From Saccostrea cucullata (Eukaryota), in the NCBI RefSeq assembly GCF_032062105.1, contig NW_026931074.1, positions 345,587 to 409,586 on the forward strand: 64,000 nucleotides of DNA, written 5' to 3'. Position numbers and translations under genes: made by a program. This document shows positions 11,548-55,590 of this stretch, piece by piece. Each line of letters starts with the position of its first letter. Positions within the stretch are counted from its first letter, which is position 1. The notes below the pieces were generated by a model. The model saw only the letters and a list, made by a program, of their open reading frames with translations. It was not told the origin of the DNA and searched no databases.

Positions 11548-12780
11548 GATACTGCTCACCAGCATGAGCAGCATGATTCAAGCATGTAGTCAGATTGGAT
11601 TCGCAGCATGAAAACAGCATCTTGAAATATTTCATGAGACCATTCTCTCTTGCTTATGTCTTTGTATGTATTGTCTCATCATACATGTACATATTATAAG
11701 TAACCAATCACAAGTCCCCTAACAAATGGTGTGTGGGCGTCTCCTACTAACTTATAGTACAAGCATGATCAGTGGGGAAGGATTGTGCCGAATCGACTGT
11801 GATATTTTTCTGTGATAATTCAGATTATCAGTGTATATATTGCCATCGAGAGTTTGCAGTTGTGCTTATTTATTTTCTGTTTTTGTCATAGAAGTCATGT
11901 ATTAAAAATCATTTTCTTTTTCCCAAGACTATAATCAAGGTAGTCTAATCTTTTTTATGTATATAAAACTATTAGGGCAGGAATTAAGAACTGCCAGAAT
12001 TTTGTAATGATACCCAGCAGTAACCATCAATTTTAAGTCACATAGATTTTATGAGGTAAAAATATTTATTCACTTGATAACTACTGCTTAAGGGTTAAAT
12101 AGATATCCTATTTTCTGGATTTCTGGAAATATCCCCCCTCCCCCTCCTGAAATGTAAGAATTTAACCATATATATTTTTAAAACGAAATATTCCCCTCAT
12201 CCCACCTATTTTCCCCCTTTGACATTTTTGTTTCGTCAGATCCTAGAAGTATACATGCATACTTAACTATAGTATGTTTATATTTAGTTTATTTTTTTCA
12301 TTGGGAGAAGGAGGTAGGAAAGGGAAGATGCTAAAATGATAAGACTTGTGAATAATTTATCCATCTATACCTCAGTATAACAAAAGTTTTAACTAATACC
12401 AAGTAAGTTACGAAGTATTCCATGTTTGCCAAACTTTTGTACATAGAGGAACAGTGCCTAAATCTTATAACAGCTAGCGAATCTCTTTAACTGCCTTTGT
12501 TATATTCTCTAAGTACTAAATTTCCAATACCCAACAAATACTATGTGGACAGGGAATTTCTTTGTAAATATTTAATGTAATCCATTGTAGACAGCCATTT
12601 TGTTTGAACTCTCCAAGATTTGCTCACACCTTGTGTTCTCTCCCTTGTTTTGTCTGGCCTTTTGTTCAAGTTTTGTTTTAGTAGATTTTTTTAGAAATGT
12701 TACCTGCATGTTTTTATTAATTTTTACAGATTTTGTTATTATGCCCCCCTTCGAAGAAGGGAGGGCATATTGCTTTGCTG

Positions 12781-14110
12781 CTGTCTGTCGGTCTGTCGGT
12801 CGGTCTGTCGGTCCACTTAGTTTCCGTTCATTTTCTTCACAACCCTTGCACATACTGAAATGAAATTTGGTATACAGATATATCACATGAATATCTAGGT
12901 CAAGTTTTGTTTTGGGTACAATCACACCTTATTTGACAGAGTTATGCCCCTTGGACTTAGAAAAAATTTCAATTATTTGCAGTTTCCGTTCATTTTCTTC
13001 GCAACCGTTGCACACACTGAAATGAAATTTTGTATACTGATATATCACATGGATATCTAAGTCAAGTTCTGTTTTGGGTACGATAGCACCATTTTTGACA
13101 GAGTTATGCCCCTTGGACTTAGAAAAATTTCAATTATTTGCAGTTTCCGTTCATTTTCTTTGCAACAGTTGCACACATTGACATGAAATTTGGTATACAG
13201 ATTTATCAGATAAGTATCTAGGCCAAGTTCTGTTCTGGGTACGCATCATTTTTGACAGAGTTATGCCCCTTGGACTTAGAAAAATTTCAATTATTTGCAG
13301 TTTCCAGTCATTTTCTTCACAACCATTGCACACACTGAAATGAAATTTTGGATACAGATATATCACATGAATATTTAGGTCAAGTTCTGTTTTGTTTATG
13401 ATCCGCACCATTTTTGACAGAGTTATGCTCCTTGGACTTAGAAAAATTTCAATTACTTGCAGTTTCCATTCATTTTCTTCGCAATCGTTGCACATACTGA
13501 AATGAAATTTAGCGTACAGATTTATCAGAGGTATATCTAGACCAAGTTCTGTTCTGGGTACGATCGCACCATTTTTGACAGAGTTATGCCCCTTGGACTT
13601 AGAAAAATTTCAATTATTTGCAGTTTCCAGTCATTTTCTTCACAACCATTGCACACACTGAAATGAAATTTTGGATACAGATATATCACATGAATATTTA
13701 GGTCAAGTTCTGTTTTGTTTATGATCCGCACCATTTTTGACAGAGTTATGCCCCTTGGACTTAGAAAAATTTCAATTACTTGCAGTTTCCATTCATTTTC
13801 TTCGCAATCGTTGCACATACTGAAATGAAATTTAGCGTACAGATTTATCAGAGGTATATCTAGACCAAGTTCTGTTCTGGGTACGATCGCACCATTTTTG
13901 ACAGAGTTATGCCCCTTGGACTTAGAAAAATTCCAATTATTTGCAGTTTTCCTTCATTTTCTTTGTAGAGGTTGCACATACTGAGATGAAATTTGGTATA
14001 CAGATTTATCAGATAAATATCTAGATCAAGTTCTGTTTTGGGTACAATCGCACCATTTTTGATAGAGTTATGCCCTTTTGGATTTAGAAAAATTCCAATT
14101 TGGGGGGAGG
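12781..14110. repeat. Satellite array of about 8 units of about 160 bp, with a 322-bp higher-order repeat; preceded by a (GTCT/GTCG)n microsatellite at 12781-12815
   Basis: Unit cagtttccgttcattttcttc..ttgcacatactgaaatgaaattt.gtatacagat.tatca...tatctag.caagttctgttttgggtac...caccatttttgacagagttatgccccttggacttagaaaaatttcaattatttg recurs at about 12820, 12980, 13141, 13299, 13460, 13621, 13782 and 13942. 13299-13620 and 13621-13940 are near-identical. The minus-strand ORFs here are repeat artefacts. Confidence 0.85.
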
Positions 14111-14341
14111 GGGGCATAAGTGTTTTACAAACATCTCTCGTCTTTTATTATATGTTTCAAGTCTACTTTGATAAAATGTGTGCTGTTCCTAGAATCCGGG
14201 ATTTTTTCGTACTTGATGTATATTGTGAATTTATGTGGATTAAGGACATGAGGAAACACTTTCATAAAGATGTGAAATTGCACTGAAATTAAATGACATT
14301 TTGATAATTATTTTGATTATAAGATATAGACTGTTAAATTA

Positions 14342-15715: not shown

Positions 15716-16395
15716 GTATAAAACTAGAGGTACTGTGAGCGATGAGCTCACTAAATGATACCCCCCGCCTCGCATATGGTTATAACTGGTGAAAAAGTCC
15801 AAGTTTTCCTGTGGCCGGGAAACCCAAAATATGTGTCGGATCAAAAAGTAAAATAGGAGGTGCACAATGGCAATATGTAATAAAGATTCTGTGAAAGTTT
15901 CATCAAATTTCATTCAGTGGTATGAGAGGAGTTGCGGATAAGAGATGGGTACCCCAAAGCGTAACAGACGGACGGACGGACGGACCCACGAAATGCAGGT
16001 TATGTGATTGACAAATTTATGTGACTTTTTCCAAATTTATGTGACTTTTTCCAAAAAAATTATGTGGCGCAAAACATGATACATGGGGTAAGGGAGGTAA
16101 ATCTCAAAACCTTTTGACGGACGTCCATATACGGACAATATTGTCCGTATTTTTTTATGTGACACTTCTTTAGAGTGATTTTTAAGTCACATAACACTCA
16201 TTTCTGCTAAAAAAAATCAAATTTGTATGTGACAGTCACATAAAACAAAAGAGTCACATAAATCTTAAATGGGCACAAAAACTGTCACTTAACCATTATT
16301 TCGTGAGAACGGACGGACGGACAGACGGACGGACAGACGGACGGACGGACGGAAATCCCGATCACTATATACCCTCCCGCTTTTCAAGCGGGGGG
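15716..16395 (-). mobile_element. SINE-like element, (GTCC)n-microsatellite family, copy in reverse orientation, interrupted by a nested MITE
   Basis: 15716-15986 carries tail through microsatellite (..cctctagtt tail as aactagagg; gggaggcggggggtatc as gataccccccgcctc; cggacggacgg). 16306-16395 carries the remaining microsatellite plus the hairpin head (cccgcttttcaagcggggggtata). The two halves are separated by the insertion at 15987-16305. Confidence 0.6.
15987..16305. mobile_element. Nested MITE (about 319 bp) inserted into the (CGGA)n tract of the SINE-like copy
   Basis: Terminal inverted repeats cacgaaat..ggttatgtgattgac and gtcacttaaccattatttcgtg. Internal palindromes (gacggacgtccatatacggacaatattgtccgtat) and repeated tatgtgac motifs. 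Its flanks rejoin as a continuous (cgga)n microsatellite. Confidence 0.45.
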
Positions 16396-16737
16396 TATAA
16401 ATATGATGAAATTCTGACAGAACTGAGGAAATTCCAGAAAATGTCCTACTTCTGAACGCAACAACTTCTAGTTGCTTTCATGTAAGCTTTGAATCCAAAT
16501 TAGTGCTGGTTTTAAAGCAAGCACCATTTTAAGTTCTCAACTACAAACTATCATAATTTTACTGCAGTGATCGATCTGATTTTTACATCAATACCGGGCC
16601 AGATTTGGACGTTACCCTGCCTTGTCCTTTCTGACCCGTGTGTAGGTTGGGTTTAGAATGGAGGGACATTGGCTAAACCTTGGCACAAAGCTAGAAAAAG
16701 GTCTAAACATGCGTTATAGGTCCTTGATTTAGGGTCA

Positions 16738-17139
16738 TTATACCCCCCGCCTGAAAAGCGGGAGGGTATATAGTAATCGGTATGTCCGTCCGTCTGTACG
16801 TCCGTCCGTCCGTCCGTCCGTCTGTTACGCTTTTTCTCTTATCCGCAACTCCTCTTATACTACTGAGTGAAATTTAATGAAACTTTCACAGAATCTTTAT
16901 TACATATTGCCATTGTGCACCTCCTATTTTACTTTTTTATTCGACACGTATTTTAGGTTTCCCAGAGCAAAACATGGACATTGCCATTTTTTGTTTACCT
17001 ATGACGTCACATAATAGAAGCTTCTGGATAACATTTCATAGGACGAGTTATTACCCTAAAACTATATAAAGCAACACATCGACATTATGGGAGGCGGGGG
17101 TATCATTTAGTGAGCTCATTGCTCACAGTACCTCTAGTT
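16738..17139 (+). mobile_element. SINE-like element, (GTCC)n-microsatellite family, full copy in forward orientation
   Basis: Head ataccccccgcctgaaaagcgggagggtatatagtaatcg, then (gtcc/gtct)n, then ttacgctttttctcttatccgcaactcct...attgccattgtgcacctcctatttt body, and tail gggaggcgggggtatcatttagtgagctcattgctcacagtacctctagtt. Head-to-head with the copy at 15716-16395, forming an about 1.4-kb palindrome. Confidence 0.6.
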
Positions 17140-17569
17140 GAGATACTTTCTCTTCAGAAAATAAAGAGCACAAGCTTGCCTATCTGAGATTTTTTAATCA
17201 TAAAATGCATCTGATACTAGTTTATACAAGCTAATTCAGAGAATCTGTGTCCCCCGCTTAGGGAATTCGTAAACGCATTTCGGGGGGGAGAGGGGATCGA
17301 GTCGGATCCCCCTGACTGGATTATTATGCCATTATTGTAGAAGTATTAAATGTATACATGTATACTGAAACAAATGAAATATGCCAGTATGGATATAAAG
17401 ATTTGATTGCTTATTCTTTATTATGTGTATAGAAGATCCTTTTTATATGGAATATTTATCACACTGTAATGATGATTTTATGAGTTTGTGCAAGCCAGAC
17501 CTCATAAATTTTTCATTTCATATGCTATCATTTATTAAAAAAAAAAGTATTTCGAAAAAAAAAGAAAAT

Positions 17570-17650
17570 GGTTCGTCCGGGATTTGAATCCGGCACCTCT
17601 CACATGTGAAGCGAGAGACATACCACTAGACCACAGAGCTACTTGCCGCA
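17570..17650 (-). pseudogene. tRNA-like retro-fragment or pseudogene (canonical D-loop through 3' CCA, then a T-run); anticodon loop reads CAC (Val-like)
   Basis: Minus strand reads ...GTAGCTCTGTGGTCTAGTGGTATGTCTCTCGCTTCACATGTGAGAGGTGCCGGATTCAAATCCCGGACGAACCA followed by TTTTCTTTTTTTTT. TGGTCTAGTGG D-loop, 7-bp anticodon stem with TTCACAT loop, and GGATTCAAATCC T-arm are recognisable. The 5' acceptor strand does not pair with the 3' end and CCA is genomically encoded. Confidence 0.4.
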
Positions 17651-17861: not shown

Positions 17862-18830
17862 CCAGTCAAAGCGTTCCCAATTAAAACCGTCCCGGTCAAA
17901 GCGTTGCCTGATTTTGGTCAAAGCGTACCATGATTTTGGTCAAAATGTCCCCAGATTTTGGTCAAAGCGCCCCCTGACATATTTTATAGAAATATGATAC
18001 TACAAAACCGCCCCCCGATTTTGGTCAAAGCGTCCCTTGATTTTGGTCAAAGCGCCCCCTGACATATTTTGATAGGAAAACATAGTTTCTAAACCGCCCC
18101 CTGATTTTGGTCAAAGCGTCCCTTGATTTTGGTCAAAGCGCCCCCTGACATATTTTATAGAAATATGATACTACGAAACCGCCCCCTGATTTTGGTCAAA
18201 GCGTCCCTTGATTTTGGTCAAAGCGCCCCCTGATTTTGGTCAAAGCGCCCCCTGACATATTTTGATAGGAAAACATAGTTTCTAAACCGCCCCCTGATTT
18301 TGGTCAAAGCGTCCCTTGATTTTGACCAAAGCGCCCCCAGATTTTGGTCAAAGCGCCCCCTGACATATTTTGACATATTTTTATAGGAAAAATAGTTTCT
18401 AAACCGCCCCCTGATTTTGGTCAAAGCGTCCCTTGATTTTGGTCAAAGCGCCCCCTGATTTTGGTCAAAGCGCCCCCTGACATATTTTGATAGTTTCTAA
18501 ACCCCCCCCAACTGATTTTGGTCAAAGCGTCTCTTGATTTTTGGTCAAAGCGCCCCCTGACATATTTTGATAGGAAAACGTAGTTTCTAAACCACCCCCT
18601 GTATGATTTTGGTCAAAGCGCCCCCACTCAAATTTGTTGTGTGAAAAAATGATGTTATTAAATTGTCCACAAAGCGCCCACTCGTTTTGGTCAAAGAGCC
18701 CCAGACATACTTTGTTTGAAAAAAAAAAATTATGTATTCAATCGCCCCCGAAATATTGGTCAAAGCGTCCCGTGATTTCGGTCTAATCGTCCCCTAATTT
18801 CGACCAAACCGTTCCCTAATATACCGGTAA
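17862..18830 (+). repeat. Left terminal satellite array of the foldback-like element (22-bp units, gattttggtcaaagcgcccc.t)
   Basis: About 40 tandem units with periodic tgacatattttataggaaaacatagtttctaaaccgcccc spacers. ORF 18218-18424 is an artefact of this array. Confidence 0.85.
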
Positions 18831-20956
18831 TTTCTAGTTTTAAACATTATGGAATGGAATGTAATATGTTGAAAAAGAATTTGAAATTTGAACTTGACGA
18901 TCGAAGTTTTCTATTAGGGAAATGCGTAAAAAAAACTTCTCCATCGTTGCACACATACATATGTAAGACTGTATATTTGCATAATTTGGATTTCAATTAT
19001 TATTACATACGGCCAAAGGATGTATTCGCTTCGACAAAAGAACTGACCTATAAGAGAGACAAATTTGAATTTCATACCTAAAATTACTTTATTACAACTT
19101 TACAATAAACCTCCAAAGTTGGTTGAAACTCAAATTTGTCCGTTTAAGCGTTGATTTTTGCATGAATTTTGGTCTAGAAGTCCTTCAGGGCAGGCCTGCC
19201 CCTAAATAAAATTGTGATATTTTGATAGGTTATGATGTAAGAAATGATTTAAGATAGGATTTTTTTAGGGGCACCCCTGCCCTAGGGTCGAAATTCACAA
19301 AAAACCTACAAAATCTAAGGAAACCAGATTTTGAAAATCTGATTCAAATTTATACCGATAATTCTTATAGACGGACTACCTCAGTTGATATATGAGTTGG
19401 TTTTACATCGTGAAGTGCTTCTTTTTAAAGTCGCTGGTTTAAAACTAGATATGTCCAAGACCCGAATCATAGACAAGAAAGAAATAACCACGGAAACCAT
19501 CCATGAAGATCATGTAATTTGATTCTTGATACAGATTGTGCAACCATCATAACAATTTCTACAATACTAATCATTTTAACAATTTCTACAATACTTATCT
19601 GAGGAGGAAGAACTGGAAAAAAATTATTTGCAGCTCTGGGGCGTATTGTGTGGTATGTTGTATAAATGTAAATTGACGATCTTTTCAATAGTTTGATAAA
19701 CATGCATTTGTAATAAATTCGGAATTTCCTTTATCCATATTTTCTTAAAATTCATTTATTTAATCAGATATGTAAAAATTTACTAATTCTGATTTTGTGG
19801 CCCTGGTTCATAATATCCCACCTCAGAGTGTGTATAGCGCACGTGCCAATCTTCTCACTTGTCATGTACCTAATTATGTAATACCACATAATATTACGCA
19901 CAGGTATACAGGAAGATCGATCATTAAGTTTCAATGAGATTTGAAGTCTGTGTATACACAGTAAACATGAATTCAGACATTCATATCATTGTAAACAAAT
20001 TTTAACAATAATGAATTTTTATAAAACAATAATATATAGCGAGAATATTTGGAACTTTCGATGGATTATTGCAGCCCGGAGGACCGGGCTGCTCTATACA
20101 TATAAGTTTAAGTGTTGGTGTATGGGGATTGGGATGGGAGTAGTTATTTAGAATTGAAGGTTTTCTCAACATTTAAAAGATTGTTAATCAAAATGTTCTT
20201 TACGTTTAAAAATTACGAGATATATAATATATTTACTTCCATAAAGTGAATCTGTAAAAAAATATATATGTTTTTCATATTTAATATATAAAGTTGCTTA
20301 TCATTTACTATCGAAAAAACGACAGGTCCCTTTTTTTAGAACATCGAATTTTACTTCTCGGATAAAAACGTACTCTGCACAGTTCGTATTTTATATTCTA
20401 AAATTGAAAATTAATACATTTTTAAATATAGGTGATGCGTGTGTTTAACTTCAATTTATATTTTATACAGCCAACATTTACTTGAGGAATTGATCAAGTT
20501 TAAAATGGTATCTTTTTTTTATTTACTTTTATCCGACTACAAGTTTTCAAAATATTCGCGACTATCGTCTCCATCAATTAGACGCATGCCTTTTCACACA
20601 CATCAAAGCGGTTTGATGATCAAGACTCATTTTCATTTTTTACTTTATATATTTCCCGGGCGACAATTGATGGTAACGTCAATGTTTTCTTGTTTTTTCT
20701 TTAAAGTCGCTTAACCCGAAACAGGCACATATCTTACACAATATCAAAAGTACGTCATTACATAGACAATATATAAAAATAAATTATAAGATTGATTTAA
20801 TGGTTTATTACAACTATCCTTACATGAAAAAGCAAATCAAAAACCTTATTGACAAACAGTAGTTCCTGACGGAAGTTAAGATCTGTTGTGAAGTCAATTT
20901 TGAATAAAATAAGTTTATCGGATATATCTAATAATGAAGATAATTCAAACCCGATT

Positions 20957-21315
20957 ATTATACCCCCCGCTTGAAAAGCGGGAGGGTATATAGTAATCGT
21001 TAATTCCGTCCGTCTGTACGTCTGTCCGTCCGTCCGTCTGTCCGTCCGTCCTTCCGTCTGTCCGTCTGTCCGTCTGTTACGCTTTGGGGTACCCATCTCT
21101 TATCCGCAACTCCTCTCATACCACTGAATGAAATTTGATGCAACTTTCACAGAATCTTTATTACATATTGCCATTGTGCACCTCCTATTTTATTTTTTGA
21201 TCTGACAAATATTTTGGGTTTCCTGGCCATCGCAAAACATGGACTTTGCCATTATAATCATATGGGAGGCGGGGGGTATCATTTAGTGAGCTCATTGCTC
21301 ACAGTACCTCTAGTT
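20957..21315 (+). mobile_element. SINE-like element, (GTCC)n-microsatellite family, full copy inside the foldback-element core
   Basis: Head ataccccccgcttgaaaagcgggagggtatatagtaatcg, then (gtcc/gtct)n at 21001-21075, then ttacgctttggggtacccatctcttatccgcaactcc... and tail ...gggaggcggggggtatcatttagtgagctcattgctcacagtacctctagtt followed by a T-run. Confidence 0.65.
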
Positions 21316-23299
21316 TTTTTTTCTCTATTAGTAGAAGCCTTAGTCATAATACATCTTTTCAAAATTAAGAAATTAATTGAATATAATCCAAAGCAATTTT
21401 TTTTATCAATATGCATATTTAAAGAATAAAGGAAAATCAGATATTTTAAATGATTTTTTTAAAGGAGCTAGAATATTGTCCGTGTACAGGTAATATATAT
21501 GCACTTTGTTGTGAAAAAAATGCTCGGGTTTGTTCTTCATGAGATAAACATGTAAGCGATAAATTTAATTTTTCGAAGGTGATTTCACGCTATATCAACA
21601 ATGATCAACAAAGGATTATTTTTTGTGTGACCTAACAAAAATTATTTTTTTAACTTTTGAATTTTGATATCTTTTAAAGGAAAAAGACTTTGGGGATATA
21701 ATTTGACAAAAGTTGAAACAATTTATGGACAATTATTTTTCAAGAAGAAAAACGAATATATATTTTTAGCGATTAGAATCGGACCAAGCGGCTTTAATTG
21801 AAATAAATGAATGAAAAATAGATTATTTTCATCACTTTTCTTAAATCATCGAGTTCTTTGCCTAGACGAAGAAATTGTGAAACGTTGAAATGTTAATTAA
21901 GATGAAAAATAACGTGTTTTATATTTTGAAAATTAGTAACTTTTTAAAAAGTTTATTATTTTCATGACAGCCCAGATCGCTTATACATGTTGCATACATG
22001 GTATAAACACATCATGCTTTCAGTAAATTTTACACTACAGACTATTCTTTGACGTTACTTATCTGAAAAAATGATAAAATAAAAACCCCATACCGAATTA
22101 TTAGGTATGGGTTTCAAGTTTGTTTGTTTGTTTTTTTTTTTCGAGATGTGTGGAACATCAGGTGCATTTATGTGTTATTTGTTTTTTCTTTAGAATTTGA
22201 TTTACCTTATGAACCTTTTCTCTAAATGAATGAATAGGAATGATTTTGAACATACAGGTATAAACGATATTTTGTACACATGTCATGTACATACTGATTT
22301 TCTTACTCATTTCGTTTATTTCCTTCTCTGCTTGATGTATACATGGATGTGTAGGAATAGTTTAATTTATACCATTTCTCTTACCTGTAAAATTTTATAT
22401 TTATTTTTATAACTTTGTTGCATATAATAAGGTAATATAACCTGAAAATCAGAAATAATAATTATTTCATTGATGTTTAAAAAGTTTAACCAGTTTAATT
22501 AACATTGAATATTTCAGATTCTGATTCAAATCAACTACGGAAACCCGTGAATCGCACAGTTTTTACTGCATGTGTGCTCCTGAGTCATTGTAAATTCTAT
22601 AAATAAATACGAAATTAATAATATTTTTATTATAAAAAAGAAAGAAAGAAAAACATGATGTCCATGGTCTTCACACAGCAGTTCCTATTGTCAAGTAAGA
22701 GTTATCTCCTTAAATGCTGTATACTCTTATATCAAACACTAAATGAATAAAATATATATTTAATTTTTTTTTTATTAATTTTTTGTCAAATGTTACCCAA
22801 ATAATTTTGAAAAGTAACATTTCAAATTGTAAAGAGAAATTAGAGAAACAACGCCGCATGCGTTTGATTTTTCGTCAGGCATGCTCCACGCCGTATGCAA
22901 ACTTTAAAACGATTAAAAACTCCATTCTGTGCTTTTAACATTATTTTTGTTTCCTAAAACATTAACTACAGGGTATGAAAAAGTAATATACCTAACAAAA
23001 AACAAATTAATTCCATTAATAACACGGCAGGCGTATACATTTTCTCGGCAGGCGCATTTTCCCCTGGCAGGCGTCGGCAGGCGTATTTTATGTGCTTGAT
23101 TAGAAATTTTTCCTTGATCGTATCCACCGTGTTTATACTTTATAGATCCTTATATTCATACACCTGTTGTATTTAAAAGAAAGTTACAGATTATGAAAAT
23201 GTGTATGTGAGCATCAACATTTATTTTTAAAATTAGCTATCATATTTTGACTCTGGGACGTCAGGAAAAAATATACATATAACAGCAAATTCCGTTTAA

Positions 23300-24390: not shown

Positions 24391-24522
24391 CTCCCATTTC
24401 ATTCAGTGGTATGAGAGGAGTTGCGGATAAGAGATGGGTACCCCAAAGCGTAACAGACGGACGGACGGAATTAACGATTACTATATACCCTCCCGCTTTT
24501 CAAGCGTGGGGTATAATAAATA
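24391..24522 (-). mobile_element. Truncated SINE-like copy (head-proximal 130 bp) abutting the right end of the foldback-like element
   Basis: catttcattcagtggtatgagaggagttgcggataagagatgggtaccccaaagcgtaacagacggacggacgg...ataccctcccgcttttcaagcgtggggtata. The body is cut exactly at the foldback terminus (gactgg|ctcccatttcattc). Confidence 0.5.
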
Positions 24523-24579
24523 CTAATAAAACAAACGGGGCGGGACACTTTGAGAGGGGTGAGAGAGGTTCTATGGAGT

Positions 24580-25067
24580 TTTGGCATAAAATTACATTGC
24601 AAAAGCTCAAAATCCTCTTGAAATATCGCCGAGAAGGGATAGTGTTATACACAGACAGAATGTATAAATTTACGACCTTGAACTTTGACCTTTTGACCTC
24701 AAAATCAATAGGGGTCTTCCTTAGGCCACAGGAAATTGTTATGTAAAATTTCATTGCAAAAGCTCAAAGGGTTCTCGAGATATCGCGCGGAAACGAAAGT
24801 GTTATAACAGACTGACTTTGCGAATTTATGACCTTGACCTTTGACCTTTTGACCCCAAAATCAATAGGGTTTATCTTTAGTCCATTGGGAGTTGCTATGC
24901 CAAATTTCATTGCGAAAGCTCAAAGGGTTCTCGAGATATCGTGTGGAAACGAAAGCGTTACAGACAGACAGAATGATGGACGGACGGACAGAGGGACAGA
25001 CGGACGGACGGACGGACAGATCCAAATTAATGTCCCCCACTTTTCAAGCGGGGGACAATAATATATA
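24580..25067 (-). mobile_element. Related element sharing the microsatellite and hairpin head (24955-25067) but with a body of 3 tandem units of about 130 bp (24580-24955)
   Basis: Units contain tttcattgc.aaagctcaaagggttctcgagatatcg...gaaacgaaag.gtta.acagac and ..tttatgaccttgacctttgaccttttgacc.caaaatcaatagggt. They end in gttacagacagacag..(ggac)n..cccccacttttcaagcgggggacaata. Confidence 0.45.
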
Positions 25068-25710
25068 AATTTGGTAGATAGGCAAGCTTGTGCTCTTTGT
25101 TTTCAGTACAAAATGTGTAAAATCGATGAAAATTTGTATAAAAATGAGAAAATTCGAAACTTGGCCTATTTTCTAACCTCACTGTGACCTCTGTGTATTC
25201 CAAATCTTAGAACCGATCGATGCTCATTTTGTGGCAAGAATGACGACAGGTTTTTATGGATAAATTATTGCATCATTCTGAAAGACACCCAAAATCAGGG
25301 GGCCAAAAACAGGTCTTAGCCTATCTTGTCCTTTAAATTTCAAATTCCTATGACATTTCACTTATTAATGACCTTGGTTCAAGGCCACTGTAAAAAAAAA
25401 AAAGATTCAATGTAGTTAAATATAGCATATTTGATCAAGGATAAACCTATAGATATTGAAAAAATGAAAACAACTTGATACATCAGGTACTTAAAGTACA
25501 GTGTATAATTTGCTATAAGAGGTTGGGGTGGAAGAGAAGCTACAAAGTACACAAGCTGGTGGCTGTGGTAAATTGATGATCCACACAGTGAAAATGTTAG
25601 ATACCTATATATGGGCATCTTTGGGCTTTCACACTTTTAAATTTATCATGCCTCTTGCATAAAACAACACACAGTTTTGTTAAAAAGAAATGATCGACCT
25701 ATTGTGATAA

Positions 25711-26110
25711 AACTAGAGGTACTGTGAGCAATGAGCTCACTAAATGATACCCCCCGCCTCCCATAATGTCCATGTGTTGCTATATATTGTTTTACGGTAA
25801 TGTGTAAAGAGGAATAACTCGTCCTATCAAATGTTATCCAGAAGCTTCTATACATATGACGTCATAGGTAAAGATATAATGGCAATGTCCATGTTTTTGC
25901 TATGGGAAACCTAAAATACGTGTGGAATAAAAAAGTAAAATAGGAGGTGCACAATGGCAATATATAATAAAGATTCTGTGAAAGTTTCATTAAATTTCAC
26001 TCAGTAGTATAAGAGGAGTTGCGGATAAGAGATAAAGCGTAACAGACGGACGGACGGACGGAAATCCCGATTACTATATACCCCCACTTTTCAAGCGGGG
26101 GGTATAATAA
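25711..26110 (-). mobile_element. SINE-like element, (GTCC)n-microsatellite family, reverse-orientation copy
   Basis: aactagaggtactgtgagcaatgagctcactaaatgataccccccgcctcccata...ggaggtgcacaatggcaatat...ggagttgcggataagagataaagcgtaacagacggacggacggacggaaatcccgattactatatacccccacttttcaagcggggggtataataaa. Small internal deletion relative to other copies. Confidence 0.6.
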
Positions 26111-27496: not shown

Positions 27497-28076
27497 TGTA
27501 ACGTTTTTCTCTCCATGGGGTGTTTGTTTCTACCCGCGTCACAAAATATTGTGGATCCCGTGTATAAATTCAGGAACTCTAGATCTTTATAGATCTAACA
27601 TAAGAACAACGACAAAGTTCGTTTCAACGAGTGTATTAACAATATCCAAGAGTAGTTTTACAAATCAATTCCAAGCTATGTATATCAACTCACTAACTCT
27701 CTCTCCTTATATACCCTGTCTGACACCTAACGTGATTTAGGGCACCTAGTTAGGGCGTTAGGCTCCATCGTTAGGGCACCTGTTAAGGCGTTAGGCTCCA
27801 TCATTAGGGCACCCTGTTAGGGCAATCGGCTCCATCATTAGGGCACCTATTAGGGCAATCGGCTCCAAGTATTAGGGCCTCTGCACCATTGTTAGGTATC
27901 AAGACACTTGATACATTTAGCATCTGATAAGCGCCATATTAATTAGGACACTAATTAGACTTCCAAGATAAGGGCGCTAATCAGTTACCATGGTTAGGGC
28001 TTATCAAATAAACAAAATTCTTATCTCTGTTTTATTTATAACAATAGCATTTTTATATAAAAGCAAAAACATTACA
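27497..28076 (-). repeat. 3' LTR (element orientation) of the gag-only LTR retrotransposon
   Basis: tgtaacgtttttctctccatggggtg....aaaagcaaaaacattaca. Contains about 4 tandem subrepeats of about 27 bp (ttagggcacct.ttagggc.ttaggctccatc) at 27740-27900. Confidence 0.85.
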
Positions 28077-28080
28077 TTGG

Positions 28081-28091
28081 TCCCTCCTTTT
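28081..28091 (-). other. Polypurine tract (minus strand AAAAGGAGGGA) immediately upstream of the 3' LTR
   Basis: Plus tccctcctttt at 28081-28091. Minus-strand aaaaggaggga, then acc aa, then LTR TG. Confidence 0.6.
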
Positions 28092-28383
28092 GAAACATGA
28101 CTTCCATTGTCATTAATATTTAAAACATGAACATGAGTTATACGTAAAACAAAATTACACAAATACGAAACAAAATCAACAGAAAGACAAAAAGTAAAAG
28201 AACAAAATTATATCAAATAAAAATGTAATTAGATTAAATCAAAAGTTTATCACACTAGTAGCTTCACATTTGGATTTCCCTGGCCTTATTTTCAACCTTT
28301 TCTCTTCCCCTTTTCCTGATTTAGGCTTTTCTTCCCTAGGGTTTTTAGGCCATATAAAGTTGACTGATACCTGACCTGCGGCA

Positions 28384-29286
28384 TCAGTCATCTGAGTTAA
28401 TATAATTCCTTACAGTTTTCTTTTCAACACAATTCAGGTCTCGAGAACTGTCACTTGGTTGAAATCTTCCTCCTTCTCTCTGGTACCATGGGTTGTAAGG
28501 GCGTCCCCTCCTCCCTGGTCCTGCATTGGTACATGTACTTGGGGTTCTCACATTTTTAAAGATACTGTTGAATCCGTCACCCGCGCTTGGAGGTTTGGCA
28601 GTATCCGCAGCTGCTATTTCATTATTCCATTCCCCATCTTCAATCTCATACACAGGCCTATAGCCTGGTTTTGTCTCCTTTGGCAATTCTTTTTCTCCAA
28701 TCCGCAAGCACTCTTCTTGCATCGCATTAAGAACTGCTTCTTGAAGTGTCCTGGGTCTGGTCCGTTTCACTGCAAGTCGAAAATCCCCAGATTGTCCACA
28801 CTTATCTAAGAAGGACTGTATAGCATTTTCTTCAACTAAATCTGGATTTCCTGGATAGGCCCTTCGGTACAAATCTTCGATGGCCTGTCCTAAATCTCGC
28901 AGGGACTCACCCGGTAGTCGTCTCCTTAATTTTACATCCGCAATATATTTTTCTTTCATTGCAGAATGTCCAAATCTTTGATTCATTTTATCCTTTAGTT
29001 GCTCATAATCACTCTGTACAGTAAGGGGCATTCCATAGGCATAGCTCTCGGCCTGTCCTCGCAAGGTGCTAAGTAGAACTCTGCGAGAAGGTCCCCATGA
29101 GTTTAATTCTGAGATGTTTTCGAAATATTGTAGAAACTCATCCCAAACATCATTATTGGCCCCTGAGAAGGTCCTCCTTACTGGATATTCATTGGTTCGT
29201 TGACCAGCATTTGGTGTCGTAAGACTGTTTGTAGGTGTCCCGTCAGTAGTAGGAAATTCAAAATTGTACCCAAGTCCCTGAGGAGA
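28384..29286 (-). CDS. Retrotransposon gag-like protein, about 300 codons open with no pol
   Basis: Hand-translating the frame of ORF 28384-29064 upstream to the TAG at 29287-29289 gives ...SPQGLGYNFEFPTTDGTPTNSLTTPNAGQRTNEYPVRRTFSGANNDVWDEFLQYFENISELNSWGPSRRVLLSTLRGQAESYAYGMPLTVQSDYEQLKDKMNQRFGHSAMKEKYIADVKLRRRLPGESLRDLGQAIEDLYRRAYPGNPDLVEENAIQSFLDKCGQSGDFRLAVKRTRPRTLQEAVLNAMQEECLRIG... This fits the retrotransposon_gag pattern (W..F...F.......L.G.A..W; R.F..GL...I; PRTL.EA). It is followed directly by the PPT and LTR. Confidence 0.7.
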   Translation of the reverse strand, partial: SPQGLGYNFEFPTTDGTPTNSLTTPNAGQRTNEYPVRRTFSGANNDVWDEFLQYFENISELNSWGPSRRVLLSTLRGQAESYAYGMPLTVQSDYEQLKDKMNQRFGHSAMKEKYIADVKLRRRLPGESLRDLGQAIEDLYRRAYPGNPDLVEENAIQSFLDKCGQSGDFRLAVKRTRPRTLQEAVLNAMQEECLRIGEKELPKETKPGYRPVYEIEDGEWNNEIAAADTAKPPSAGDGFNSIFKNVRTPSTCTNAGPGRRGRPYNPWYQREGGRFQPSDSSRDLNCVEKKTVRNYINSDD

Positions 29287-29290
29287 CTAA

Positions 29291-29900
29291 TTACCCAAAT
29301 AAGGAGTATCCAGATTGCCCAGAAACTTTAGGTTCCTGACAGGTACCTGTAGGGGCGTTAGGTGCACTACCACCAGTATAGGGTGTATCACTGGATATCA
29401 AAGAAATTTCCCTTTCCTTACTGGCATTCAGCAGACCAGATCCATACTTCCATAACACTCTGATTACCGTAACAAGGAATATCATACTTGTTATCGATAT
29501 TAGAGAAATTACTGCATTTTCTTGAGATTCCTGCACGATCTTGTTTTCTGGAAAATAGATCCAGGTCATCACCATCAGGAAACATATCCTATCAAACCAA
29601 AGAGTATCCAAATACATAGGATTCTCTTTAAGCTTGGCCTTGGATCGTACTTGCTTTTAATAGAAAGACCCTGCGAGTTTTGCCCGAACTCCTGAAAGTT
29701 AGGACTGTCTGGCATTACTCGACTTGTGGGCTGCAAACTTGTTCTACACCCCGTATCGACCTCTATTCCTGAGTCATTCAGATGAGCTGGACTTTCGAAG
29801 TACTGTCCTACCTTTCTAGGCATAACTCTCTTCCTTACGATGGGTGTCTCCATTTCAAACTCTGTGCTGTCTAGTGTTACACGTAAAATAATTTCTTTGG
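29291..29900 (-). pseudogene. Frameshifted N-terminal region of the element's gag polyprotein (ORFs 29575-29940 and 29291-29617 in two other frames)
   Basis: Pro/Thr/Gly-rich tails of ORF 29291-29617 (...TGGSAPNAPTGTCQEPKVSGQSGYSLFG*) and the start of the gag frame (SPQGLGYNFEFPTTDGTPT...) look like one protein broken by a 1-nt indel near 29290. A second shift lies near 29575-29617. Contains a 22-residue hydrophobic segment (AVISLISITSMIFLVTVIRVLW). Confidence 0.4.
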
Positions 29901-29918
29901 ATCCCACCGCTGCCACCA
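29899..29918 (-). other. Primer-binding site (minus strand TGGTGGCAGCGGTGGGATCC), 2 nt after the 5' LTR
   Basis: Plus-strand GGATCCCACCGCTGCCACCA reads as a tRNA 3' end (acceptor/T-stem followed by CCA). On the minus strand the PBS begins with TGG, the classical tRNA-primed PBS configuration. Confidence 0.7.
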
Positions 29919-29920
29919 AT

Positions 29921-30500
29921 TGTAACGTTTTTCTCTCCATGGGGTGTTTGTTTCTACCCGCGTCACAAAATATTGTGGATCCCGTGTATAAATTCAGGAA
30001 CTCTAGATCTTTATAGATCTAACATAAGAACAACGACAAAGTTCGTTTCAACGAGTGTATTAACAATATTCAAGAGTAGTTTTACAAATCAATTCCAAGC
30101 TATGTATATCAACTCACTAACTCTCTCTCCTTATATACCCTGTCTGACACCTAACGTGATTTAGGGCACCTAGTTAGGGCGTTAGGCTCCCTCGTTAGGG
30201 CACCTGTTAGGGCGTTAGGCTCCATCATTAGGGCACCCTGTTAGGGCAATCGGCTCCATCATTAGGGCACCTATTAGGGCAATCGGCTCCAAGTATTAGG
30301 GCCTCTGCACCATTGTTAGGTATCAAGACACTTGATACATTTAGCATCTGATAAGCGCCATATTAATTAGGACACTAATTAGACTTCCAAGATAAGGGCG
30401 CTAATCAGTTACCATGGTTAGGGCTTATCAAATAAACAAAATTCTTATCTCTGTTTTATTTATAACAATAGCATTTTTATATAAAAGCAAAAACATTACA
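29921..30500 (-). repeat. 5' LTR (element orientation) of the gag-only LTR retrotransposon
   Basis: About 99.5% identical to 27497-28076. Differs at about 3 positions (ccatcg/ccctcg, ttaagg/ttaggg, atatcc/atattc). Confidence 0.85.
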
Positions 30501-50334: not shown

Positions 50335-51122
50335 GTACAGGAAGGTCATGCTCTGCTGCCTTTGTGGTTTTTGGTGCTGTAGTTCACTTAACATCACCTG
50401 GAAATCTCAGTGACATGTCACATACTTAAGTTCTAGTATTTGGGACTAACACTCTTGTCTATAATTATGATTATAGATATACAGCTTTTAATTTTATTTT
50501 ATATATATCTTTGAGGTTACTTTTAATTTGTAAATTTTAACCATCTTGTTTATTTTCATGCTGTTTGCCCTATGCTGAATTAATTCCTATAGTAACTGAT
50601 ATCCAGGTGATTCCCTTTGTAGCAGCTGATAGCGTCTGTATCAATGTCTTATAAATATGTCTAGGATTAATGTAGTTTATATCTATACTGTATGTTGTCC
50701 CTCAGTTCTAATGTAGTACTGAGTAGTCACCCTTTACTGTACAATTAAGACATGCTAGATCTCTCATTTTGTCATATCTGTCATATTAATCAGGGCTTTC
50801 AGAATCTGCTGAGATATGGTACTTTTACCTGAATCAAATCATGATTGTTAATTATCAGCCAAAATATTTGTTGGAGAAAATTTGATAAAATTGCTTCCAT
50901 AAGGTTCCCCTATTTTTGTCAAAGTACCATGTTTCACATCTTTTTGAAAGCACTGATTAAACTTACCTCAGTTGATATATATATATTTTTTTTACTGATT
51001 TTATTTTTTTTCTTAAAAACTAATGTAAATAATTTGATACTGTTAGTAAGCTAGGTTTTGTGTGTGTGTATTCCTGTGTTAGAACTTTGTTAGAAATGTG
51101 CTTTTCCAAAAATTCATTTATT

Positions 51123-51127
<5 letters not shown>

Positions 51128-51169
<42 letters not shown>

Positions 51170-51215
51170 CATTTTGTCCGTCGTCCGTCCGTCTGTCCGT
51201 CTGTAAACTTTTCAC

Positions 51216-51252
<37 letters not shown>

Positions 51253-52188
51253 TGACCAAACTTGGTACAAAGCATCCTTGGGTAAAGGGGAATTTAAATT
51301 GTTAAAATGAAGGGACATATCCCCTCGCAAGGGGAGATAATCAAGAAAAGACAAAAATAGGGTGGGGTCATTAAAAAATCTTCTTCTCAAGAACCACTGG
51401 GCCAGAAAAGCTGAAACTTATGTGGAAGCATCCTGGGGTAGTGTAGATTCTAAATTGTTCAAATCATGACCCCCGGGGGAAGGGCGGGGCCACAATGGGG
51501 AATCAAAGTTTTACATAGAAATATATAGGAAAAATCTTTGAAAATCTTCTTCTCAAGAACCACTGGGCCAGAAAAGCTGAAACTTATGTGGAAGCATCCT
51601 GGTATAATGTAGATTCTAAATTGTTCAAATAATGACCCCCGGGGGATGGGTGGGGCCACAATGGGGAATCAAAGTTTCATATAGAAATATATAGGAAATA
51701 TCTTTGTCAAGAACCACTGCTGAAACTTATGTGGAAGCATCCTGGTATAATGTAGATTCTAAATTGTTCAAAAAATGACACCCGGGGGGAGGGCGGGGCC
51801 ACAATGGGGAATCAAAGTTTTATATAGAAATATATAGGAAAAATCTTTGAAAATTTTCTTCTCAAGAACCACTGGGCCAGAAAAAGTGAAGCTTATGTGG
51901 AAGCATTCTTGGGTAGTGTTAATTCTAAATTGTAGGAATCATGACCCCCGGGGGAAGGGCGGGGCCATTATAGGGAATCAAAGTTTTACATAGAAATATA
52001 TAGGAAAAATCTTTGAAAATCTTCTTCTCAGGAACCACTGGGCCAAAAAAGCTGAAACATATGTGCCCATGGAAGGATCATGGGGTAGTGTAGATTTCAA
52101 AATGTCTAAATTATGATCAGTGGGGTAGGGTGGGGATGCATTATGTATAACAAGGGTGAAATCTGGTAAAGAACAGAATGGTCAAAGC

Positions 52189-52225
<37 letters not shown>
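51128..52225. mobile_element. Repetitive element (about 1.1 kb) with agctcacctgagc / gctcaggtgagc inverted termini, a (GTCC)n tract and an internal about 140-bp tandem array
   Basis: Starts tttagctcacctgagccgaaggctcaagtgagc, then gtccgtcgtccgtccgtctgtccgtctg. About 6 tandem units (cttcttctcaagaaccactgggccagaaaagctgaaacttatgtggaagcatcctgg...gacccccggggga.gg.ggggccacaatggggaatcaaagtt) span 51230-52090. Ends ...gcttctcaggtgagcgatgtggcccatgggcctcttg. The same terminus occurs at 34147-34315 and 6062-6095. Confidence 0.5.
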
Positions 52226-52229
<4 letters not shown>

Positions 52230-54469: not shown

Positions 54470-55590
54470 CTTTGCTGGCTTAAGGCTGTGAGATTTGTAT
54501 TTAGGAGGCTTTTATTGAGTTGGTTAGATATAGGTAGGAGTCTTAAATTGAGTCATCTCAAACTAGGCTGTGAGATATTTTAGCCTTAATTTGTTTAAGA
54601 TCTCTCTGAATAGGCTGTGAGATATTTTTATATAAGAGCCTTTGTTTGAGTTATCTCAGACCAGACAGTGAGATACCCAGGAATTTATAAGCCTTAATTT
54701 GTTGAAGTCCTCTCAAACTAAGTTTGTGGGATATATTTATATATTAGCCTTTGTTGAATGTTTATAGTCCTCTCTGACTAAGGCTAAGCTGTGAGATATA
54801 TTTATTTGAGGCCTTGGTTTGAGTCATCTTTGACTAGACAGTGTGATTTATTTATAAAGGAGTCTTTGTTTAAGTTCTCTCAGATCAGGCAGTGAGATAA
54901 ATAGGATTCTGTTTGAGTTCTTTCAGACAAGACTGTGAGATATACAATTTTGTTTGAGTCCTCTCAGATCAGGCTGTGGGATATATAGGATTCTGTTTGA
55001 GTCCTCTCAGACCAGGCTGTGAGATAAACAATCCTGTTTGAGTCCTCTCAGACTAGTCTGTGAGATATATAGGATTCTTTTTGAGTCCTCTCAGACCAGG
55101 CTGTGAGATATATAGGATTCTGTTTGAGTCCTCTCAGACCAGGCTGTGAGATAAACAATTCTGTTTGAGTCCTCTCAGACCAGGCTGTGAGATATATAGG
55201 ATTCTGTTTGAGTCCTCTCAGACCAGGCTGTGAGATAAACAATTCTGTTTGAGTCCTCTCAGACTAGGCTGTGAGATATATAGGATTCTCTTTGAGTCCT
55301 CTCAGACCAGGCTGTGAGATATACAATTCTGTTTGAGTTGTCTCAGACTAGGCTGTGAGATATATAGGATTCTGTTTGAGTTCTCTCAGACTAGGCTGTG
55401 AGATATATAGGATTCTGTTTGAGTCCTCTCAGACCAGGCTGTGAGATATGTAAGATTCTGTTTGAGTCCCCTCAGACCAGGCTGTGAGATATATAGGATT
55501 CTGTTTGAGTCCTCTCAGACCAGGCTGTGAGATATATAGGATTCTGTTTGAGTCCTCTCAGACTAGGCTGTGAGATATAGGGAGTCTCTG
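54470..55590. repeat. Minisatellite of about 25 units of 41-43 bp in the gene B intron between exon 2b and exon 3
   Basis: Unit gagtcctctcagaccaggctgtgagatatataggattctgttt with variant ...gagataaacaattctgttt. Copies are degenerate at the 5' side (54470-54900) and homogenised at the 3' side. ORF 55048-55242(-) is an artefact. Confidence 0.85.

Follow-up and report, generated by a model that had tools for sequence, protein, structure and literature searches.

The 64-kb stretch of the Saccostrea cucullata genome examined here (RefSeq assembly GCF_032062105.1, contig NW_026931074.1, positions 345,587 to 409,586; hereafter the window) contains a family of short repeats, each carrying a (GTCC/GTCT)n microsatellite, that we classify as a nonautonomous Helentron. 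More specifically, the family is a DINE-1-like Helentron-associated interspersed element (HINE) of the kind represented in bivalves by pearl, Cg_HINE, DTC84 and MgE, and we put the probability of this assignment at roughly 90%. Every structural item that describes a HINE is present except the central tandem repeats, which are frequent but optional. The evidence comes from the organization of the two ends, the TT dinucleotides that flank the copies, the lack of coding capacity, the stronger conservation of the ends relative to the bodies, the absence of features of short interspersed nuclear elements (SINEs), the presence of sibling families in the window, and relatives found outside it. The kind of element, its microsatellite, the preference for TT and the clustering of copies have all been published already, and the focal family is one further member.

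Copies of the Repeat Family

The window is AT rich, with GC content of about 0.29-0.40, and dense in repeats. Copies of the focal family were recovered by a blastn self-search seeded with window positions 16700-17200, with which a full self-comparison of the window agreed, by MAFFT alignment of the copies together with their flanks, and by nhmmer searches with profiles of the head and the tail. The original prediction had listed six copies or fragments of one family. Its copies were recovered exactly as listed and five of them (copies A to E) do belong to a single family, but the sixth, a "head-only variant" at ~24952-25062, proved to be the 5' module of a different family. E-values reach 1e-134, which places the family far beyond chance. 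The nhmmer profiles detect five heads at 56-64 bits and four tails at 66-71 bits, with no comparable score elsewhere in the 64-kb window. The copies and fragments of this ~360-405-bp family are arranged as follows.

15721-16402, minus strand: copy A, short-body; core from ATACC to CTAG at 15724-16398; TT at 16399-16400 and 15722-15723; insert at 15986-16305
16735-17140, plus strand: copy B, long-body, complete; core at 16740-17137; TT at 16738-16739 and 17138-17139
20955-21316, plus strand: copy C, short-body, complete; core at 20960-21313; the longest microsatellite, 72 bp
25710-26110, minus strand: copy D, long-body, complete; core at 25713-26105
24396-24519, minus strand: copy E, a 5' fragment of ~120 bp comprising the head, a microsatellite of 16 bp and 59 bp from the start of the body; core at 24396-24514

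All of these lie within 15.7-26.1 kb of the window. A rough post hoc estimate under uniform placement gives p ~0.003 for five members of a family falling within 10.4 kb of 64 kb. Complete copies measure 354-398 bp from ATACC to CTAG and fall into two subfamilies. Copies A, C and E have a body of ~190 bp that includes a GGGGTACCCA block, whereas the body of copies B and D is 265-281 bp long and contains an additional segment of ~90 bp. Tails are 94-100% identical between copies, and bodies compared between the subfamilies are 89-95% identical. The 59 bp of body retained in copy E are identical to those of A and C, and the copy breaks at a GGGAG filler that adjoins another repeat. Within the segment that is specific to the long-body copies (16965-17030 and 25800-25880) there is a perfect palindrome resembling a cyclic AMP response element, TGACGTCA, CTATGACGTCA, in both B and D; this may be captured or chance sequence.

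None of the complete copies A-D contains an open reading frame (ORF) of at least 110 amino acids, and all six frames are full of stop codons. The single ORF of that length that touches the family, at 24411-24746, spans fragment E and a neighboring sibling element (family V, described below).

Structure of the Ends

Read from 5' to 3', a copy begins with TT, ATACCCCCCGC, TTGAAAA, GCGGGAGGGTATA and ~12 nt, followed by 16-72 bp of (GTCC/GTCT)n. Then come GTTACGCTTT and the rest of the body, GGGAGGCGGGGGGTAT, CATTTA, the stem-loop GTGAGC-TCATT-GCTCAC, AGTACCTCTAG and a final TT. The anticipated module order is therefore confirmed, namely a hairpin head, the microsatellite and the body, then GGGAGGCGGGGGGTAT...GTGAGCTCATTGCTCAC...CTCTAGTT. 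The short inverted match reported between head and tail (TATACCCCCCGC / GCGGGGGGTAT) is also real: the first 12 nt, TATACCCCCCGC, recur in inverted orientation twice, once in the adjacent hairpin arm and once ~40 nt before the 3' end as GCGGGGGGTAT. We refer to the outer pair as subterminal inverted repeats (subTIRs). For copy B, the terminal features map as follows.

16739-16750, plus strand: 5' subTIR TATACCCCCCGC, located 0-3 nt from the 5' junction across copies
16758-16770, plus strand: internal inverted repeat GCGGGAGGGTATA, which pairs with the 5' subTIR across a 7-nt loop
16784-16823, plus strand: (GTCC/GTCT)n, 16-72 bp among copies
17094-17103, plus strand: 3' subTIR GCGGGGGTAT, which is GCGGGGGGTAT in A, C and D and ends ~36-40 nt before the 3' terminus
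17110-17126, plus strand: 3' stem-loop GTGAGC-TCATT-GCTCAC, 6-bp stem, 11-13 nt upstream of CTAG(TT)

Both subTIRs are found in every complete copy, and the microsatellite is present in five of five copies. Folded as DNA, the 5' hairpin has a free energy of -13.3 kcal/mol (z = -6.5), and none of 200 shuffled sequences folded as well. The 3' stem-loop sits 6 nt after the subTIR in all four tails; it is identical in B, C and D, and in A it is changed in the loop only. In copy B it folds at -6.1 kcal/mol (z = -2.2).

All five heads are preceded by TT, and all four tails end in CTCTAG followed by TT. The flanks contain no direct repeat beyond this TT; similarity between copies stops sharply at both sides and the flanking sequences are otherwise unrelated. 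Given these sharp edges, the unrelated flanks and the occurrence of both orientations, the copies spread by transposition and not by local duplication. The 6-mer TATCAC, found near both flanks of copy D, was considered as a target-site duplication (TSD) and rejected, as it is not adjacent to the ends and has no match at the other copies.

These positions agree with the rules set out for HINEs by Thomas et al. 2014 (PMC4067079), who recognized HINEs as the nonautonomous partners of Helentrons. There, the subTIRs measure 12-15 bp, the 5' one being 2-4 nt and the 3' one 38-60 bp away from its end of the element, and the distance between the palindrome and the 3' end is 8-35 bp; in the focal family the 5' subTIR is near-terminal, and the 3' subTIR and stem-loop precede the end by ~36-40 nt and 11-13 nt, respectively. 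The same study describes a preference for T-rich or TT sites, runs of T at the boundaries and clustered HINE/Helitron insertions. In the oyster Cg_HINEs of Vojvoda Zeljko et al. (PMC7492417), the left flank comprises the 5' subTIR, an internal repeat and the microsatellite, and a palindrome accompanies the 3' subTIR in the right flank. Several Cg_HINEs carry GTCY, GTCC or GTCK microsatellites, and they prefer TT and produce no TSD (PMC7492417). Pearl, DTC84 and MgE are constructed alike; their microsatellite is ACGG, which corresponds to CCGT/GTCC on the opposite strand, and they lack RNA polymerase III (Pol III) boxes (PMC3879986).

Absence of SINE Features

The family had initially been described as SINE-like, and this does not hold. 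Such a reading would make the repeat a Pol III-transcribed retroposon with a structured head and a microsatellite, copied from RNA by the enzyme of a long interspersed nuclear element. It would suit copies that are short, noncoding and interspersed in both orientations, with a structured 5' end and an internal simple repeat. However, ARAGORN and Rfam searches (E up to 1) found no credible tRNA, 5S or 7SL similarity within any copy. A check for Pol III A and B boxes, proposed together with the SINE label, also gave a negative answer, as the consensus patterns are absent at up to one mismatch and none occurs at a position common to the copies. The 3' tail ends ...GCTCACAGTACCTCTAG, CTCTAG after the stem-loop, which is neither A-rich nor a simple repeat. 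TSDs of variable length were not seen, the copy flanks having TT alone in common. In addition, SINEs have no need of an inverted repeat common to head and tail, and the entire anatomy is that of DINE-1 and the HINEs. We therefore regard a SINE origin as extremely improbable. Rfam also returned PsrR1 matches in the body (25 bits, E ~0.45, gathering threshold 42), which we dismissed as chance.

A weak tRNA-Val(CAC)-like sequence is located at 17569-17639 on the minus strand. ARAGORN detects it, and its Rfam score of 23 bits falls short of the gathering threshold of 29. This sequence lies 430 bp downstream of copy B, outside every HINE copy, and may represent either a decayed tRNA gene or the start of a true tRNA-derived SINE, its head.

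Sibling Families and (GTCY)n Microsatellites

Three further elements in the window have the same type of 5' module joined to tandem repeats.

12737-14146, plus strand: sibling HINE family (i), complete; head TATGCCCCCCTTC..GAAGGGAGGGCATA, (GTCT/GTCG)n, eight 162-bp repeats
51122-52226, plus strand: sibling HINE family (ii), complete; head AGCTCACCTGAGCC..GGCTCAAGTGAGCT, (GTCC/GTCT)n, ~166-bp Cg170/BIV160-like repeats
24560-25062, minus strand: sibling HINE family V; head TTGTCCCCCGC..GTGGGGGACA, (GTCC)n, 2.5 tandem repeats of ~156 bp; adjoins copy E

On its 3' side, family (i) has the subTIR GGGGGGCATAA and a short palindrome, and it terminates in T-rich sequence. The corresponding features of family (ii) are the subTIR CTCAGGTGAGC, the palindrome GGCCCATGGGCC and the end TCTTGTTTT, and its monomer resembles the Crassostrea gigas CL1 monomers printed in the supplement of PMC7492417. 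The sequence first taken for a head-only variant belongs to family V, where it continues into the ~156-bp tandem repeats at 24588-24975; no 3' module was recognized in this family. The stems of the 5' hairpins differ by family (TATACCC/GGGTATA, TATGCCC/GGGCATA, TGTCCCC/GGGGACA and AGCTCAC/GTGAGCT), with z scores of -3.3 to -6.5. Because the hairpins are strong in all families although their sequences differ, it is the structure itself that appears to be conserved. This conservation is seen in the individual folds, the MAFFT alignment of heads across families not being in structural register.

All eight (GTCY)n tracts of at least four units in the window fall within the 5' modules of elements of this type, in line with the proposal that the family is a source of (GTCC)n microsatellites. 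Two tracts put forward in support of that proposal, 12781-12815 and 51175-51205, do lie inside such elements, but these are members of two further, different families, with the first tract mapping to 12776-12815 in family (i) and the second to 51175-51205 in family (ii). The focal family and its siblings are thus seeders of (GTCC)n loci, a published phenomenon. Likewise, lepidopteran "(GTCY)n hitch-hiking MITEs" (miniature inverted-repeat transposable elements) have been reassigned to the HINEs (PMC4067079). Taken together, the window illustrates a "cassette" model in which one type of terminal module is combined either with a single-copy body or with satellite-like arrays of ~160-bp repeats.

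Relatives Outside the Window

Exact-pattern scans with the 3' tail and the 5' head gave zero matches in JGI metagenome contigs, IMG/VR and GTDB genomes, as expected for a eukaryotic transposon. Two Mytilus loci (M. coruscus and M. galloprovincialis; 42 kb), fetched through homologues of a gag-like ORF in the window, contain no copy of the family and no (GTCY)n tract of at least four units. We also searched the translated element against a set of 5.8 billion proteins for spurious ORFs. A query without the microsatellite, and hence specific to the family, found nothing. With the microsatellite included, ~35 small generic "...GRTDGRTD...VYPP.F..GGI" ORFs were detected, which are the 5' modules of other HINE families. 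Public "proteins" of this sort, 50-86 amino acids in length with the form ...GRTDGRTDGRTD...VYPP.F..GGI, are reverse-strand translations of HINE 5' modules located on megabase-scale ENA contigs, where transposon sequence was mistakenly called as genes.

Related elements with the same ends occur on two of these contigs. An element at 4157-3278 on the minus strand of ENA ERZ26168041 has the head ATTATACCCCCCGC, which is 80% identical over 90 bp to the head and microsatellite of copy B. It also has a GTCY tract, and its 3' side combines the subTIR GGGGGGGGTAT with a small stem-loop before ending in GATCTAGTTT. Its central repeats are homologous to those of element V in the window, the head of which it also matches. 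This element sits among gene calls that match API5 (PF05918). A second element, at ~4130-2980 on the minus strand of ERZ25073285, has a similar head, CATACCCCCGCTTTGAAAAAGTGGGGGGTATAC, ahead of a microsatellite and tandem repeats. These two relatives place the terminal modules of the focal family within a broader, bivalve-type set of HINEs with common ends and differing centers, a cassette pattern that has already been described for Cg_HINE group 2 (PMC7492417).

Helentron, Helitron or Cut-and-Paste Element

In the older literature, pearl, DTC84 and DINE-1 were read as cut-and-paste MITEs, for which a DDE transposase binds the inverted repeats and insertion creates a 2-bp TT TSD. Such an origin would account for the TT at both sides of every copy and for inverted repeats of 11-12 bp near both ends, and an AA/TT TSD has indeed been proposed for this kind of element. 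Nevertheless, only the 5' repeat of the focal family is (nearly) terminal, the 3' repeat being ~40 nt internal. The two ends are asymmetric, ATACC... as opposed to ...CTCTAG, and the 3' repeat is followed by a stem-loop. Furthermore, the published autonomous partners of elements with this architecture are Helentrons, and published empty sites show no TSD (PMC4067079, PMC2374699, PMC7492417). A cut-and-paste origin is therefore highly unlikely.

Another possibility is a rolling-circle element of a different flavor, either one with ends 5'-TT...CTAG-3' inserted between A and T, or one with a Helitron2-type Rep/helicase partner that has no endonuclease. All five 5' junctions can be read as A/T(T)TATACC and all four 3' junctions as CTAG/T, and the CTAG agrees with the CTRR end of Helitrons. 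Moreover, proto-Helentron-Pi has a 5' TT, a 3' CTAG and A/T insertion (PMC4067079), and Helitron2 likewise possesses asymmetric inverted repeats and palindromes at both ends. On the other hand, the presence of subTIRs with an internal repeat next to them and a GTCY microsatellite is the hallmark of HINEs associated with Helentrons; in the window, the sibling families terminate in runs of T without CTAG; and bivalve elements of this build have been classed as Helentron derived (PMC7492417). The T-rich junctions also make placement to a single base ambiguous, and all nine junctions in the window agree equally with the TT...CTAG reading between A and T and with the ordinary T/T reading. By the criteria for canonical Helitrons, the 3' CTAG and hairpin fit, but the 5' (T)TATACC in place of TC and the presence of subTIRs do not. 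We give a different rolling-circle class only a slim chance. A small chance, somewhat less slight, goes to a mixed arrangement, in which TT...CTAG ends inserted at A/T, like those of Helitrons and of the Phytophthora "proto-Helentron", are combined with Helentron-type subTIRs and a GTCY block. If true, that arrangement would make the family a metazoan structural intermediate between Helitron and Helentron, as well as a lineage of HINEs in which central tandem repeats were never gained.

Several observations weigh against classification as a HINE. The absence of a TSD and the exact ends are based on four to five flanks, where TT could equally be a 2-bp TSD. Tandem Repeats Finder detects no array in the focal copies except the microsatellite, so that the central tandem repeats are missing, and the body shows no significant similarity to the monomers of the sibling repeats (best z ~3.7 against mononucleotide shuffles). 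The idea that the body is a diverged monomer of the ~160-bp repeat is unsupported, as just a short common GAAATGAAATTTG-like motif was found. The 3' stem-loops, those of the siblings included, are short and not individually significant relative to shuffled sequence (z -2.2 to +0.4), and their support comes from their position and their recurrence in families (i) and (ii) and in the ERZ26168041 element. No autonomous Helentron with Rep, helicase or endonuclease is encoded in the window, where ORFs of at least 110 amino acids comprise the gag-like ORF and noise. Finally, the collections searched (the DNA scans, the Mytilus loci and the spurious-ORF search) yielded no further copy of the exact focal family.

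As a nonautonomous Helentron, the family would depend on an enzyme supplied in trans, and the following steps are modeled on established Helitron and Helentron biology. The Rep/helicase(-endonuclease) of an autonomous Helentron elsewhere in the genome would recognize the hairpin at the 5' subTIR, or the terminal modules more generally. It would nick the 5' end, and one strand would be unwound and displaced until displacement terminates at the 3' subTIR and stem-loop. The single strand would then integrate at a T-rich (TT) site without a TSD, amounting to rolling-circle copy-and-paste. The microsatellite would hitch-hike within the 5' module, its length varying by slippage. Since DINE-1/HINE elements carry (GTCC/GTCT)n in flies, moths and bivalves alike, we view the family as an ordinary feature of a bivalve genome.

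The Head-to-Head Pair and the Nested Insert

Copies A and B were reported to face each other head to head 340 bp apart, and this is correct, the distance being ~332-336 bp. Between them lies the following feature.

16403-16734, no strand assigned: unique spacer of ~332 bp between the facing 5' ends of A and B, with no repeat match

Their description as a 1.4-kb palindrome is accurate insofar as the copies are inverted, but the structure is a patchy inverted repeat formed by two insertions from different subfamilies. The inverted arms consist of segments of 44, 88 and 129 nt at 90-98% identity, broken by indels and by the 320-bp insert. Identity is 94% for A with C and 95% for B with D, whereas a comparison of A with B gives 91% and 21 gap columns. 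Because A is a short-body copy resembling C and B is a long-body copy resembling D, the pair represents two independent insertions and not an inverted duplication. We conclude that A and B inserted separately into the same repeat-rich neighborhood, and clustering of HINE and Helitron insertions is known (PMC4067079).

The microsatellite of copy A is interrupted by foreign sequence.

15986-16305, no strand assigned: insert of ~320 bp in the (GTCY)n of copy A, with imperfect inverted ends CACGAAAT...ATTTCGTG

In the alignment, the insert splits the microsatellite, with 49 bp remaining toward the head and 20 bp toward the body. It contains many internal and subterminal TTATGTGAC-like motifs and a central palindrome of 22 nt. 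As the site lies inside a microsatellite, a TSD cannot be read. The insert appears to be an element of the terminal inverted repeat type. The original prediction of a nested MITE is thus upheld with regard to an insert of this size with imperfect inverted ends in the microsatellite of copy A, but the MITE class, although plausible, is unproven, and a second copy of the insert is not found in the 64-kb window.

Other Repeats in the Window

Inverted copies of another repeat-bearing element are located at 17862-18840 (plus strand) and 24390-23375 (minus strand). This element is composed of nested 22-, 85- and ~110-180-bp tandem units of GGTCAAAGCGYCCCCTGATTTT, and both copies start with CCAGTCAAAGCGTTCCCAATTAAAACCG, their first 43 nt being 100% identical. 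The 17862-18840 copy ends ...TAATATACCGGTAATTTCTAGTTTT, that is, a TACCGGTA palindrome and then a CTAGTTTT end, which closely resembles the 3' end of the focal family; no subTIRs were seen in it. The 24390-23375 copy adjoins the truncated copy E through the 5-nt filler GGGAG. This may be another nonautonomous element of the Helitron type.

A 29-nt motif, AAAGAGCACAAGCTTGCCTATCT, occurs at 17157-17185 and, inverted, at 25076-25104 with 96.6% identity. The first site follows the 3' end of copy B by 17 nt, and the second precedes the 5' end of element V by 9 nt. The motif may be a fragment of another repeat or mark a preferred neighborhood.

A 3-kb derivative of a long terminal repeat (LTR) retrotransposon occupies 27497-30500. 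Its 580-bp LTRs (27497-28076 and 29921-30500) are 99.5% identical and have TG...CA ends, and the TSD is apparently the 4-bp ATAC. Each LTR holds a 33-bp minisatellite (27737-27867 and 30161-30291). The only coding sequence of the element is a gag-like ORF at 28384-29064 on the minus strand. The named matches of this ORF are confined to Mytilus coruscus, M. galloprovincialis and M. edulis, at 48-81% identity over the aligned part, and there is no identical protein on record. Considered together with the Cg170/BIV160-like repeats, these matches would by themselves suggest a mytilid-like bivalve as the host. The derivative is a young, nonautonomous insertion.

A 43-bp tandem repeat of TGTTTGAGTCCTCTCAGACCAGGCTGTGAGATATATAGGATTC spans 54867-55579, with 16.8 copies, 88% matches and higher-order periodicity at 84 and 127 bp. 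This repeat has no relation to the HINE arrays.

Significance and Comparison with Known Elements

The importance of the assignment is mainly for annotation, as it decides whether repeat libraries label the family as a rolling-circle HINE or as a SINE. In addition, seeding by HINEs explains the bivalve (GTCC)n loci that have flanks in common and are troublesome as markers.

The closest parallel outside bivalves is Drosophila DINE-1/INE-1 (DNAREP1), the founding HINE. DINE-1 has 13-bp subTIRs that begin (T)ATACCC in 12 Drosophila species. Its block A contains a GTCY-rich microsatellite that differs in length, its central region varies, it has no ORFs and it inserts at TT (Yang and Barbash 2008, PMC2374699). 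The subTIR of the focal family starts with the same (T)ATACCC, and both elements have a partial inverted repeat beside the 5' subTIR and a GTCY-rich microsatellite in the 5' block. They also have in common a variable center without an ORF, a stem-loop just 3' of the 3' subTIR, TT flanks, and clustered copies in two orientations. The focal family differs in having a bivalve host, a subTIR that is unrelated beyond its first 7 nt, a single-copy body instead of central repeats, and the 3' end CTCTAG.

Another element of comparable behavior is lepidopteran MINE-2 (Coates et al. 2011), which, as relayed in PMC4067079 and PMC3879986, is likewise a small noncoding spreader of (GTCY)n whose loci have similar flanks. 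Its host is an insect, and the likeness is one of description and not of sequence. Canonical Helitrons resemble the focal family in a hairpin ~11-13 nt before a CTRR-type end (here CTAG), presumed rolling-circle transposition and clustering, and they produce no TSD, as is probably true of the focal family. They differ in having no inverted repeats, a TC start and A/T insertion, whereas the focal family has (T)TATACC and subTIRs.

The most similar elements are the bivalve HINEs, namely Cg_HINE_1-13 of Crassostrea gigas (Helitron-N*_CGi in Repbase), pearl CvA, CvE and CvG of C. virginica, DTC84 of Donax trunculus and MgE of Mytilus galloprovincialis, a comparison that concerns the described architecture and not sequence identity. 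As in the focal family, these elements have a 5' subTIR of 11-12 bp whose internal complement lies 1-12 bp away, a GTCY/GTCC microsatellite with a 4-nt unit, a 3' subTIR with a palindrome, and no Pol III boxes. They insert at T-rich or TT sites without a TSD, as the focal family probably does. They too include families with common flanking modules and differing centers. The difference lies in the central tandem repeats of ~160 bp by which the bivalve HINEs are defined, which are missing in the focal family and present in its three siblings in the window.

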